Source of the DNA: a virus
Lineage: Duplodnaviria > Caudoviricetes
Direction: 5' to 3' (one strand)
Virus record (IMG/VR): IMGVR_UViG_3300027994_000011
Coordinates: 1-39,370 of that record
Length of the DNA: 39,370 nucleotides
The notes beneath the pieces were generated by a model. The model was given only the letters and a program-made list of their open reading frames with translations, did not search any database and was not told the origin of the DNA. The number at the start of each line of letters is the position of its first letter. Positions within the stretch are counted from its first letter, which is position 1. Made by a program: the position numbers and the translations under genes. Shown one piece after another: positions 2,914-6,096 of this stretch.

Positions 2914-3094
2914 TCAACTCCAGTCTTTTTAATTTTGCTTTCTCGACAGGGGACTTTGGGTTCAAAATATCGGGATGGTGACCTATATAGAATGCCAAAC
3001 TCGCCATTTCAGACTTGGCGTCTATTGCATCAGAATTACAAACCAGAGAACATAGCCTTTTGATTTCTTCTAAAGTTTCTTTATCAATTGTCAT
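2894..3094 (-). CDS. hypothetical phage protein
   Basis: ATGA overlap with upstream gene. Confidence 0.6.
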   Translation of the reverse strand: MTIDKETLEEIKRLCSLVCNSDAIDAKSEMASLAFYIGHHPDILNPKSPVEKAKLKRLELNDGQRN

Positions 3095-3378
3095 TCGCCT
3101 TTGTCCTTTTCAATCGGGCGGGATGCGTATTCGGAACAAATCAGGTCGTATTCCTCCTCATCCTCAACGCTGCACCATTCATCGTCAACCGGGCATAGAT
3201 AATCAATTCCACTGGCATTGCAGTAATCCGGCTTAATATTGTTATCAAACTGGAAACAATCGTAGTCTGCCAGAATATCCACCAATCTTTGACCTTCTTT
3301 TAAATCAGCGACCGGAACTATAAACGGTTTTCCCGGCACTTGCGGAATATGCCAAACCCTTAATTCTAGTTTATTCAC
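3091..3378 (-). CDS. P22 gp17-like superinfection-exclusion-related protein
   Basis: LRVWHIPQVPGKPFIVPV...LADYDCFQFDNNIKPDYCNASG closely follows the P22 gp17 signature. Confidence 0.85.
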   Translation of the reverse strand: MNKLELRVWHIPQVPGKPFIVPVADLKEGQRLVDILADYDCFQFDNNIKPDYCNASGIDYLCPVDDEWCSVEDEEEYDLICSEYASRPIEKDKGE

Positions 3379-3536: not shown

Positions 3537-3897
3537 TTTGTTTATCCTTTGGTTGTAATTTACCATTATGCAACCTGTCCATGGCTTCTTCAAAGGCTTC
3601 ACGCAGTGGACACCCGCCATTATAGAACCTTAGGGCAATTTCTATGCTTCCATCAGAATTAAGACTTGCTTGTGTTAGATAACCGTCATCTTCAATGTCT
3701 TTTGTGCCTGAATAATCATAAAGCTCACCATTATACGACAAATAGGTTTTGTAATGCTTATCGGTTAATTTCTCTAAAAATGTATCGCCATAAGATTTCT
3801 CATCCCCAAGCATACGCTCACACATCTGCTCGACTGTTTCATTTTCTTTGGGTTGAACCTTGACTACCTTGCCGACCCAGAATTCCATTTCAGACAT
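3529..3897 (-). CDS. hypothetical acidic phage protein, first gene of operon
   Basis: 122-aa ORF with RBS GGAG upstream. Confidence 0.75.
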   Translation of the reverse strand: MSEMEFWVGKVVKVQPKENETVEQMCERMLGDEKSYGDTFLEKLTDKHYKTYLSYNGELYDYSGTKDIEDDGYLTQASLNSDGSIEIALRFYNGGCPLREAFEEAMDRLHNGKLQPKDKQNV

Positions 3898-3975
3898 AAA
3901 AAAACTCCATAAAAGTTAGCTCGCCTTCGGGGACAAACTAACGTCTATAGAGTTTCAACTGCCCGAACAGTCAAG
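3898..3975 (-). promoter_or_regulatory. Structured 5' leader: two hairpins with complementary loops, RBS sequestered
   Basis: Loops UUCGGG and CCCGAA; long stem AAACUCUAUA..GUUAGUUUGUC/GGCGAGCUAAC..UAUGGAGUUU with G-U pairs on minus strand. Confidence 0.7.
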
Positions 3976-3979
3976 AACT

Positions 3980-4007
3980 ACAATACACCATTCCCTCACC
4001 GGGTCAA
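3980..4007 (-). promoter_or_regulatory. Putative sigma70 promoter
   Basis: TTGACC-16nt-TATTGT directly upstream of the structured leader. Confidence 0.55.
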
Positions 4008-4019
4008 GCGGGAAATGAG

Positions 4020-4586
4020 AAAAAAGTTACAGGGTGAGGTGCGGCCTACTTTCGTAGCTGTTGCCCTTGAAGGTTTTTAAACCAAACCGCAGTTCTTTCG
4101 GCAACCCTGATAACTTCCTTGTGCCAGATGTTCACCCCGATCAGGTTTTCCGTACTGGCATTCCTATCCTGCCTTATTTGTTGGGGAGGTGTCAACTAGG
4201 CAATATTCCGCTTTCCGCAAGACCCGATATACTTGATATCAATGCGGTTCGGTCAGGTCGTATTACGTTAGTAAATCCTACAAGATGACATTTTATCGAG
4301 TGCCGCTCGCCGATACCCACTATACCAGCCATGGGGAGCAATTACATCGTACAGGTCTTGTATTCTGTTCTTCGGGCAAACCCTACCCTAGAACGCCCCG
4401 GAAATTCCCTTTCGGGATAAAGAAGGCTACCAACAACTAGATTTTTGGCTTTACACCATACGGAACCTAGAAAACGCTGAGAAGCTATCGGGGAAATTAG
4501 TTGACCTTATCGGTCGGATGCACTATATATAGTGTCAAGGTACTAAATTCATCCCTCGAAGAAAGCTTCCGGCGCTTCGGGGGATT
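4020..4586 (-). ncRNA. Putative ~560-nt structured non-coding RNA of unknown family
   Basis: No credible ORF in a gene-dense genome; nested helices with G-U polarity and GAAA tetraloops (UCCC-GAAA-GGGA, CUAC-GAAA-GUAG) on minus strand; ends in a closing stem plus U-run. Confidence 0.65.
4501..4529 (+). promoter_or_regulatory. Putative sigma70 promoter for antisense sRNA
   Basis: TTGACC-17nt-TATATA; -10 lies inside the perfect palindrome CACTATATATAGTG (4521-4534). Confidence 0.6.
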
Positions 4587-4592
4587 TCTTTA
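4536..4592 (+). ncRNA. Putative ~55-nt antisense sRNA ending in an intrinsic terminator
   Basis: 11-bp stem ATCCCTCGAAG/CTTCGGGGGAT (one G-U pair, valid only on plus strand) followed by TTCTTT; promoter immediately upstream. Confidence 0.55.
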
Positions 4593-4619
4593 TCTTAATG
4601 ATAAATTTGTTTTGGTCAA
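4592..4619 (-). promoter_or_regulatory. Putative sigma70 promoter of the large ncRNA
   Basis: TTGACC-16nt-TAAGAT on minus strand just after the 4626 stop codon. Confidence 0.55.
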
Positions 4620-4625
4620 GAAAAA

Positions 4626-5069
4626 TTACGGCATCTTCTGAAAGAAGTTTCCAGAGTTTGATTCTATCTCTTTAGATATATCTAATATAATTCGGTAAAC
4701 TTTTCGACCTTCCTCAACAGAAATGATATTTGCTGTATGGTAATCGTATTTTGAGCCAAGTCGCTCTTTTATAATATTGTACAGGAATGTCCTTTTACGC
4801 TTAGCGTTGTCCCTGTTCTTCCACATAGGGTCTAATAGAGCATGAATATGCTTACGTGCATTCTTTATGGCTGGCGTGGGTATGATACCTAACGGTCTAG
4901 TTCTGTCTTTTGTTTTCCAATGGCAACCAACAAAATTATCGCATCGGTCACATATCCAAAACGGAAGTTTATATAAATCTTCCCTATGCGGGTAAATTTC
5001 CTTACCATCCGTCAATCTGGCCTTGACCTTAAAACCACAATCGCAGCACCAAATTTCTCTTACTTGCAT
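4626..5069 (-). CDS. DUF3268-family zinc-finger protein
   Basis: CCDCG..ARLTDGKEIYPHREDL...FWICDRCDNFVGCH...PLG...RKHIHALLDPMW pattern; ATG 5069. Confidence 0.8.
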   Translation of the reverse strand: MQVREIWCCDCGFKVKARLTDGKEIYPHREDLYKLPFWICDRCDNFVGCHWKTKDRTRPLGIIPTPAIKNARKHIHALLDPMWKNRDNAKRKRTFLYNIIKERLGSKYDYHTANIISVEEGRKVYRIILDISKEIESNSGNFFQKMP

Positions 5070-5197
5070 TTTTGACAAGGCTCTATAACTATTTCATTAA
5101 CAGCCTTATCTACAGGCATAATAAGCTTACCTTTGAGTTCTGAGTTACACACAGAACACACGGCCCTCGCAGGGATAGAAATATTTATATGAGCCAT
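5060..5197 (-). CDS. 45-aa CxxC...CxxC zinc-ribbon miniprotein
   Basis: Manual translation MAHINISIPARAVCSVCNSELKGKLIMPVDKAVNEIVIEPCQKCK; TAATG coupling to upstream gene. Confidence 0.65.
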   Translation of the reverse strand: MAHINISIPARAVCSVCNSELKGKLIMPVDKAVNEIVIEPCQKCK

Positions 5198-5790
5198 TAT
5201 TTCATCCTCAATTCTAAATTTCCAAATATCTTGTTCAACTCAATTAAATAACGGTCTTTTACCCACTGGTAAGCTGATTTAGTAACCGTTAAATAGTTTT
5301 CATGCTGATATCCGTATTCAGGATCATATCTCGCATCCTTAAACCATGTATTAACAACCGCTACCCCGTAAACCTTTGCTATCTTATGTTTCCATTCAGG
5401 CCAGTCTTGTGTGTCAATCGGTAGAGCGGCAGTCTCTAATGCTGCCTGACCATCGTTCCATCTCTTTTGATTGAGCCAACTTGAGGCGTGGGCAAAGGCC
5501 GCAAACTCTTCTTTATTCAGGCAATAATACCGCAGACCCTTCATTATAGTTTCGTGGTCTGTTTCCTTTAGGGCTTTAATATAAGCACGTTCGGCGGGTT
5601 CTTTTGCCACCTTAAGCGGATAGGCTGTCCAGAACTCCAAGAAAGTTGTTGGTTTGATTCTCTTAGGCTTGGCGGTGGGATTGCGGACAATATGGAGCGC
5701 GTTCTCGTAATATAGCTTACGGTCTTCTGGCGAAGTTTCTTTATTCGCCATTAATACAACTAGGTCATATACGCGCTGTTGGTCGTTCAT
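5197..5790 (-). CDS. Replication initiator/replisome-organiser-like protein with C-terminal DnaA domain I-like segment
   Basis: FLEFWTAYPLKVAKEPAERAY...HASSWLNQKRWND initiator C-terminal motif; then W..KIAKVYGVAVVNTWF...YQWVKDRYLIEL resembling DnaA_N. Confidence 0.75.
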   Translation of the reverse strand: MNDQQRVYDLVVLMANKETSPEDRKLYYENALHIVRNPTAKPKRIKPTTFLEFWTAYPLKVAKEPAERAYIKALKETDHETIMKGLRYYCLNKEEFAAFAHASSWLNQKRWNDGQAALETAALPIDTQDWPEWKHKIAKVYGVAVVNTWFKDARYDPEYGYQHENYLTVTKSAYQWVKDRYLIELNKIFGNLELRMK

Positions 5791-5796
5791 TCCTAA

Positions 5797-5868
5797 AATC
5801 TAGTACAAAATAAAATGTACCGCAAGTGAAATTTAATCCTTGACGTGAATTAAATAAAATCCTAGGTT
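5797..5868. promoter_or_regulatory. Divergent promoter pair 1
   Basis: Minus TTGCGG-17-TAGATT (5825-5797), 6 nt before ATG 5790; plus TTGACG-17-TAGGTT (5840-5868). Confidence 0.65.
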
Positions 5869-5925
5869 GGTCTGGCTAATCCAGATTCGAAACGAAAAGG
5901 AATAGCAATTTAAACAGGAGATATA

Positions 5926-6096
5926 ATGAACAACTTAGCAAAAATGCTGGCAGCATACAGACAAAAGAATGATATGAGCCAGCGCGAACTTGGTAAGTCT
6001 ATAGGGCTTCCACACTCGACAATGTGCCGAGTTGAGCAAGGCAAAGATTTTGACCTAAACACTTTTGCCAAACTTTTAGCATGGATGATAAAATGA
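5926..6096 (+). CDS. Cro/XRE-family HTH regulator (56 aa)
   Basis: Manual translation MNNLAKMLAAYRQKNDMSQRELGKSIGLPHSTMCRVEQGKDFDLNTFAKLLAWMIK; RBS AGGAG. Confidence 0.88.
   Translation: MNNLAKMLAAYRQKNDMSQRELGKSIGLPHSTMCRVEQGKDFDLNTFAKLLAWMIK

Follow-up and report, generated by a model that had tools for sequence, protein, structure and literature searches.

A covariation-supported structured element with a nested antisense unit beside the gene of a phage replication initiator without a recognisable DNA-binding domain

In plasmid ColE1, the counter-transcript RNA I has three stem-loops and a length of 108 nucleotides (nt), while in Inc and ctRNA systems the translation of rep is under leader control. 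RNA-based origins also occur in phages (PMC7157519): in cluster A mycobacteriophages without repA, as far as the accessible text of that report goes, the RNA serves plasmid-prophage maintenance beside parABS and is dispensable for lytic growth. On the protein side, DnaA domain I and the KH domain of DciA are described as partners of DnaB, DciA binding DnaB via a helix hairpin (PMC9912922, in its accessible part), and folds like the N-terminal domain of G39P are reported to mark phage-derived loaders (PMC11087808, likewise). The locus considered here lies at positions 4,020 to 5,790 of a phage record of 39,370 nt, rated complete (IMGVR_UViG_3300027994_000011), the whole of which is called the window. 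On its minus strand, the gene of an initiator of 197 amino acids (aa) lies upstream of a structured element whose 5' end would be covered by a short antisense RNA. The original prediction had seen in this arrangement a possible RNA-based replication-initiation system with the layout of ColE1, made up of a ~560-nt RNA, its antisense RNA and an initiator with no evident DNA-binding domain.

The element can be compared with one related viral contig, L001, whose initiator is 51% identical to the window protein. In L001, the block directly behind the initiator stop codon aligns to window positions 4625-4198 and, counted from a predicted start near 4585, the conserved unit measures ~390 nt (4585-4198). 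In its core (Table 1), 216 of 281 ungapped columns are identical, the single-stranded junctions are invariant, and the alignment gaps measure 1, 1, 2, 3 and 5 nt, which excludes any common reading frame and thus a coding role. The consensus energy of the minus strand is -61.9 kcal/mol, two ways of shuffling the columns giving -41.5 and -45.5 (0/150 each), and its pairs show 12 two-sided changes where shuffles give ~3.3 and at most 8 (0/150), together with six one-sided ones, G-U to Watson-Crick changes among them; on the plus strand, the consensus energy is no better than in shuffles (32/150 and 33/150). Covariation is found in the helix 4362-4356/4285-4279, of 7 bp with three two-sided changes that mirrored one-base shifts could also yield, and further in 4435-4427/4274-4266 and 4349-4344/4316-4311, and the core is closed by the pairing of 4464-4459 with its 3' end. 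Two hairpins differ wholly in sequence between the phages and keep their fold in both; GAAA and UCCG loops and many G-U pairs also occur in the minus-strand fold. No match to the element was obtained in Rfam 15 (including ROOL, GOLLD, group I/II introns and RNase P) at gathering threshold or at a meaningful E value, in annotated phages, or by blastn at E 1 in 72,556 plasmids, in agreement with the earlier remark that there is no sequence homology to ColE1. Likenesses seen by eye to group I/II introns, RNase P, the signal recognition particle RNA and hepatitis delta virus-like ribozymes had no support in Rfam, and a literature search outside whose scope lay subscription papers, supplements and non-Rfam catalogues of phage RNAs returned no description of this RNA or of RNA-linked initiators without a helix-turn-helix (HTH). 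Judged by covariation and by its position outside Rfam, this is a real and new structured element, whatever its role, and it is likely transcribed as RNA.

The long minus-strand RNA that had been predicted is thus supported as a structure but not in its length of ~560 nt, since conservation ends at ~4198, directly ahead of a TTGACA present in both phages. Behind this point identity drops to 37%, the fold of 4020-4191 is no better than in shuffles (z -0.8), and the z of -2.8 calculated for 3905-4625 stems from terminal hairpins and not from the core. As to the start, a promoter scan found 10 sites where 9.3 were expected, and the candidate promoter of the long RNA keeps its -35 context in L001 with a poor -10 there; read-through from the initiator operon is the alternative to a promoter of its own.

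The antisense unit is supported on two counts. Its promoter, TTGAC-17-CTATAT, is the sole site without mismatch on both strands of the window, four others having one mismatch, when scored against an alphaproteobacterial consensus; an E. coli-type scan did not list the site, and L001 has TTGACA-18-TATAAT at the corresponding place, with a different spacer. The unit 4535-4595 folds better than 200/200 dinucleotide shuffles (z -2.8), its L001 counterpart having the same z of -2.8 with 4/200 shuffles as good, and in the terminator four of 13 consensus pairs have both partners changed from one phage to the other, with a U-G pair common to both that marks the plus strand. The plus-strand promoter (4501-4529) and terminator (4551-4592) put forward from the window sequence alone are both upheld by these results. 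With a start of the long RNA near 4585, or with read-through, the predicted antisense RNA would cover its first ~50 nt. Since both phages have the promoter and the covarying terminator, a counter-transcript able to pair with the long RNA's 5' end is predicted, and the antisense RNA is probably transcribed. Over the -10 of its promoter lies a perfect 14-bp palindrome (4521-4534), between facing TTGAC words (4501 plus, 4538 minus); it is not kept in L001 and is a possible repressor site.

The initiator comprises a two-helix hairpin (residues 3-36), a basic linker, a motif domain (47-119) and a DnaA domain I-like domain (129-197). A phage-initiator motif covers residues 49-118 (PHROG 270, E 4e-14), the matches to PHROGs 270, 9327 and 9474 ranging from E 4e-14 to 9e-11. 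In the structure model (predicted local distance difference test, 82; residues 1-40 at 74-87), residues 1-45 form two helices only and zero strands. The protein belongs to a short clade of 17 sequences of 182-205 aa, which align end to end, so that the short form is not a truncation artefact. HTH or DUF1376 matches in Pfam were obtained for 0/12 members of this clade at E 0.1, and no HTH fold is listed among the structural matches to residues 1-45, which alone excludes nothing. Across the 17 sequences, R24 and Y28 of the hairpin are near-invariant and the linker is rich in Lys/Arg; the hairpin was not found in longer proteins, by a weak test, and gave no Atlas lead (0.77). Domain 47-119 has one listed structural match, the N-terminal domain of the SPP1 helicase loader G39P (1no1_A; Z 5.5, 60/67 residues, root-mean-square deviation (rmsd) 2.2). 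For domain 129-197, the top two structural matches are 4tps and 2wp0 (Z 7.7, rmsd 2.5, 66 aligned; 4tps_D Z 7.7), a second structural comparison gave 4tps_B (prob 0.99, rmsd 2.3), and Pfam DnaA_N (PF11638) is found in 7/12 members (best E 1.9e-7), the window protein itself remaining below the cut-off (E 0.067). The assignment to DnaA domain I, despite middling Z, agrees with these Pfam matches, and in the model the C-terminal domain has the KH-type fold of DnaA domain I; both C-terminal domains match helicase-loading folds. DnaA_N is also found in 12% and 56% of the members of two viral Atlas clusters of 163-169 aa. What had been said of the protein, namely a short stretch before the motif, no recognisable winged HTH and a DnaA domain I-like tail, is therefore borne out by profiles and structure. 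The same is true of the remark that no helicase, loader or primase is evident, as neither these nor a polymerase were found among the 53 window open reading frames (ORFs) scanned with PHROGs, a scan outside which most virion-region ORFs lie.

The short form stands apart from its relatives. In 32/33 other motif-bearing ORFs examined, 87-265 residues lie ahead of the match, and 4-6 iteron-like copies occur in 6/11 long initiator genes tested, whereas the genes and non-coding regions of the window and of L001 hold at most two, as do shuffles. This confirms, for the gene and its flanks, the statement that no iterons could be seen, in a search that degenerate or widely spaced sites could escape. 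In a relative from a Micavibrio prophage (L200), the tail is the same, the N-terminus is longer and internal repeats are present; a clear iteron array is observed at 3980-4060 of this locus, inside an HTH-motif-DnaA_N initiator gene.

The DNA context is readable for 2/17 short-clade proteins, and in both loci RNA and initiator are adjacent with different intervening and surrounding genes; the two genes that separate them in the window are absent there in L001. An RNA model built from these two sequences matches 2/57 sources, both of them those used to build it, and 52 of the 55 others carry the initiator motif (of the 19 loci listed after L001 in the initiator search, 14 entered the set, near-duplicates being left out, and nhmmer covered all 19; flanks were of 1.5-5 kb). 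Searches for further copies were made more widely. In pattern scans of viral contigs (1, 56 and at least 119 loci), the profile had matches in the L001 contig, in the window's own copies and nowhere else among the loci retrieved. A metagenome scan returned the window's own contig only, and no locus of the short clade came from viral scans that used P0009 and P0159, two of its members. A genome scan yielded five long initiators. From the Micavibrio order, 320 genomes were searched, with 14 long initiators and three chance DNA matches of 22-25 nt as the outcome, and the RNA model, run without positive control in 151 of the 320, found nothing. Among sequencing runs, two hold the region in full and may be the source of this DNA, a third covers 3892-4003 only, and none with the RNA beyond these is listed. 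The adjacency kept in L001 and the long relatives without RNA support a link between RNA and initiator, as far as sequence comparison can tell.

Table 1. Features of the locus (window positions; -, minus strand; +, plus strand).
Feature	Position	Strand	Basis or remark
Short replication initiator / predicted helicase-loader adaptor, 197 aa	5197..5790	-	Profiles and structure model
45-aa Cys-containing ORF	5060..5197	-	No family match; in L001 not located between initiator and RNA
DUF3268 zinc-finger gene	4626..5078	-	PF11672, E 5.9e-13
Candidate long-RNA promoter, TTGACC-16-TAAGAT	4592..4619	-	9/12; chance-level in scan
Predicted 5' leader of long RNA, entirely within antisense-RNA span	4535..4585	-	37/59 columns identical
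Predicted ~58-nt antisense RNA: single-stranded 5' tail, terminator hairpin (4551-4583), U-rich tail	4535..4592	+	Folding, covariation
Antisense-RNA promoter: TTGAC (4501-4505), 17 nt, CTATAT (4523-4528)	4501..4528	+	Counterpart in L001
Conserved 13-nt box between antisense promoter and core	4487..4499	-	Alignment; 12/13 identical
Structured RNA core, ~290 nt, multi-way junctions	4198..4486	-	Two-sequence consensus fold and covariation
TTGACA directly behind core in both phages; candidate next promoter, marks end of conservation	4190..4195	-	Window/L001 alignment

The best reading of the locus, to be held tentatively, is that the RNA, controlled by its antisense RNA, forms an R-loop or pre-primer that defines an origin in cis, and that host DnaB is loaded by the protein. 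It is favoured because the protein kept only loader-type folds, lost its DNA-reading part and no longer has its sites, and because the element linked to it would be a folded transcript opposed at its 5' end by a counter-transcript, as in the control layout of ColE1. A role as translational leader of the initiator does not apply since in both loci the RNA follows the initiator gene. The nascent long RNA would hold its own DNA open as R-loop or pre-primer, the R-loop forming at about 4200, close to the core's 3' end, while the ~58-nt antisense RNA would bind the 5' leader and set how often the long RNA reaches its active fold. There the protein would load host DnaB through its G39P-like and DnaA domain I-like domains, and host primase and polymerases would be used, as none were found in the phage. 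It is conceivable, with somewhat less confidence, that this lineage swapped the DNA-binding domain of its initiator and the iterons for an antisense-gated RNA of ~390 nt that selects and opens the origin, the protein being left as a three-domain helicase-loading adaptor.

Several points weigh against an RNA origin in cis. Only two sequences of the RNA are known, from related loci; shared descent would by itself keep neighbours linked in two related phages, and distance alone would explain why the RNA is absent beside distant initiators. Taken singly, neither core exceeds its shuffles in stability (z 0.06 and 0.2), and the plus strand likewise has nine two-sided changes, which leaves room for a DNA structure. 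The fold-match Z values of the protein are middling (5.5-7.7). The GC skew turns at ~5500-5900, in the divergent promoter region, and not at the RNA, and a Cro-like HTH gene at 5926-6096 could be a separate source of DNA recognition. The features that would bring the RNA closer to RNA II point both ways. The leader (4563-4557) can pair with the core (4374-4368) in both phages by a 7-bp Watson-Crick helix with one two-sided change (5/1000 and 2/1000 shuffles, for a helix picked after the fact), in switch-like competition with the leader hairpin. This pairing speaks for the reading, and yet the helix has an ensemble probability of ~0, costs 6-16 kcal/mol and never forms at equilibrium. Blocking the leader in silico leaves the core fold and the G-tract unchanged, and neither pairing between leader and G-tract (30/500) nor a self-matching downstream repeat (23/400) is significant. 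The G-tracts noted in the long RNA are present as a string at 4399-4381, but the first tract is not conserved, reading GAGG in L001; the other two are predicted to be paired with a CCC, and a G-quadruplex is ruled out since only these two tracts are conserved. From the proposed ColE1 layout there remains the predicted counter-transcript over the 5' end, with a ~390-nt unit, a single-hairpin antisense RNA of ~58 nt and a partly unconserved G-tract as departures, and the likeness in length to RNA II is a coincidence. A predicted complex of the initiator (17-row alignment) with two DnaB copies from a stand-in genome of the Micavibrio order scored 0.00, which speaks neither for nor against an interaction.

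Phages with an even shorter initiator also stand against a necessary role of the RNA. In the Rhizobium phages RHph_N3_2 and RHph_Y25, a 112-aa motif-only gene comes directly after a methyltransferase gene, leaving no room for an RNA, so that the HTH can be lost where no RNA lies next to the gene; that the methyltransferase ORF hides an RNA was considered and ruled out by its NPPW motif and its methylase relatives. The co-occurrence of the RNA with HTH-less initiators, which the original prediction named as a check, is seen in the two readable short-clade loci and not beside these genes. In both cultured phages, the 112-aa motif-only initiators are unannotated (L244 2540-2878 and L245 1983-2321, respectively). 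At another locus (L206 3670-4312), a 112-aa motif-only initiator is found behind a gene-free, hairpin-rich gap of ~300 nt, which folds modestly well (5/100 shuffles) without match to the RNA model; this is a candidate second family of RNA with headless initiator.

The alternative that survives best, rather unlikely on present evidence, is that of a genuine non-coding RNA which serves the phage in some way other than origin firing (an ornate RNA like ROOL or GOLLD, an antiterminator or a ribozyme), the small RNA being an OOP-like regulator of the early operon and the protein loading helicase on recombination intermediates or at the site of another factor. The invariant junctions and many-branched fold resemble those of tertiary-structured RNAs, an SSB-like protein, NinB and RusA are among the gene products of the phage, HTH-less motif proteins occur without adjacent RNA, and none of the ColE1-type hybrid features passed a test. 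However, the RNA remains beside the initiator as the other neighbours change, and an antiterminator would have no common target, because each phage has different genes downstream. The antisense unit also goes with the RNA and not with the DUF3268 gene. Considerably less probable is a trans-acting RNA that would be the specificity subunit of a ribonucleoprotein initiator, bound by the hairpin and basic linker so as to stand in for the DNA-binding domain that was lost, its level being set by the antisense RNA. While the near-invariant R24 and Y28, the Lys/Arg-rich linker, the long invariant unpaired stretches of the RNA and the L206 gap, counted as a similar layout with the RNA on the other side of the gene, would suit such a particle, no guide-like genome match was found (110 nt behind the core tested), and any helical hairpin matches many proteins. 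Least probable of all is that the folded element acts as single-stranded DNA exposed by transcription, i.e., as a single-strand origin or a primosome/primase signal (cf. ssoA, the G4 origin, GEBRO): covariation cannot separate RNA from single-stranded DNA, and plasmid motifs of 223-349 nt are flagged as possibly single-stranded DNA in the accessible part of PMC5737381, but the G-U pairs, the one-strand G-U to Watson-Crick changes, the GAAA/UCCG loops and the nested antisense unit suit RNA better.

As regards the genome setting, the leftward unit runs from the initiator gene (5790-5197) through the 45-aa ORF and the DUF3268 gene (5078-4626) to 4625-3900, 725 nt without any family-matching gene. 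The DUF3268 gene is missing at the corresponding position of L001 and is thus outside the conserved module. Upstream, 5790-5926 is the divergent promoter region between the initiator and the Cro-like HTH gene, which stands alone and divergent; no second repressor, integrase or parABS was seen among the scanned ORFs. The early region encodes SSB-like, NinB, RusA and HNH proteins (PHROGs scan), and the virion genes include those for terminase, portal, major head protein and endolysin. The closest long relatives with the same tail as the 197-aa protein come from prophages found in the Micavibrio order, a hint that the host may be an alphaproteobacterium. A P22 gp17-like superinfection exclusion gene is found at 3091-3378 on the minus strand (PF17420, E 1e-27).

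Small elements are also observed behind the long RNA. On the minus strand, 4018-4125 is a folded domain seen in the window only, with a closing helix of ~12 bp that ends in a U run, a GAAA-loop hairpin and, by eye, a possible pseudoknot; it folds better than 98/100 mononucleotide shuffles, has no match in Rfam or phages, and could be a third small RNA from a TTGACA at 4195. A separate small unit at 3898-4007 (minus) has a promoter-like TTGACC-16-TATTGT at 4007-3980 and a very stable hairpin with a U tail (z -6.4, 0/200), which buries the ribosome-binding site of an ORF starting at 3897, and a second site, TTGAC-17-CTCTAT, begins at 3974. A 175-nt contig of sequencing run X3 (type guessed RNA, depth 3.3) agrees with 3892-4003 apart from two differences and is flanked by other sequence; given this flank, the unit may be a mobile module.

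If the RNA does act as origin, initiation would be a hybrid of RNA and protein, neither of the ColE1 nor of the lambda O/P kind, possibly recurring among phages with HTH-less initiators, and an RNA could take over the choice of origin from a protein domain. One small phage protein would connect DnaA domain I with DciA and with loaders of the G39P type. Many small phages are without recognisable origin-binding protein, helicase or primase, and such a module might be their answer. The 1.6-kb cassette is directly testable as a minireplicon.

Different known systems resemble parts of this locus. Like the RNA II/RNA I pair of ColE1 (PMC11012335), it is predicted to have a long structured transcript whose 5' end lies under a short counter-transcript from a convergent promoter, and no phage polymerase, primase or helicase was found in the ORFs scanned. 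It differs in its conserved unit of ~390 nt, where RNA II has 555, in its antisense RNA of one hairpin and ~58 nt, in the absence of sequence matches to the plasmids and Rfam families searched, and in a dedicated initiator-derived protein linked to the RNA (2/2 loci) in a lytic-type phage context. With the prophage RNA origins of cluster A mycobacteriophages (Wetzel et al., 2020, PMC7157519), it would have in common that a non-coding RNA of the phage takes part in starting replication; here, however, an initiator-derived protein is present, parABS and integrase are unseen in the scanned ORFs, and the phage collection gave no DNA match. The plasmid motifs ARRPOF, GEBRO and PAGEV were likewise found by covariation, measure 223-349 nt and are tied to replication regions, but are plasmid-borne, and no nested antisense unit or HTH-less partner is described in the accessible part of that study (Weinberg et al., 2017, PMC5737381). 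As for the protein, the C-terminal motif domain is common to lambda O-type initiators with a DUF1376 or HTH_36 N-terminus (PHROG 270; L200, P0007), and the DnaA_N tail to the closest long ones; in contrast to these, it has a 40-residue hairpin in place of the N-terminal DNA-binding domain and internal iterons. DciA combines a KH-type DnaA domain I fold with a helix hairpin (PMC9912922), and SPP1 G39P and VdhL share the G39P N-terminal fold with the middle domain of the initiator (PMC11087808, PMC6316719), as far as these sources are accessible, although domain order differs, sequence-level matches are absent and binding to DnaB is here a prediction. In Inc RNA and ctRNA systems, the structured RNA precedes the rep gene that it controls, whereas here it comes after the initiator gene in both loci. 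By analogy, the element may work like ColE1 or the mycobacterial prophage RNA origins while being a member of neither, given the lack of homology, the other sizes and the protein linked to it.

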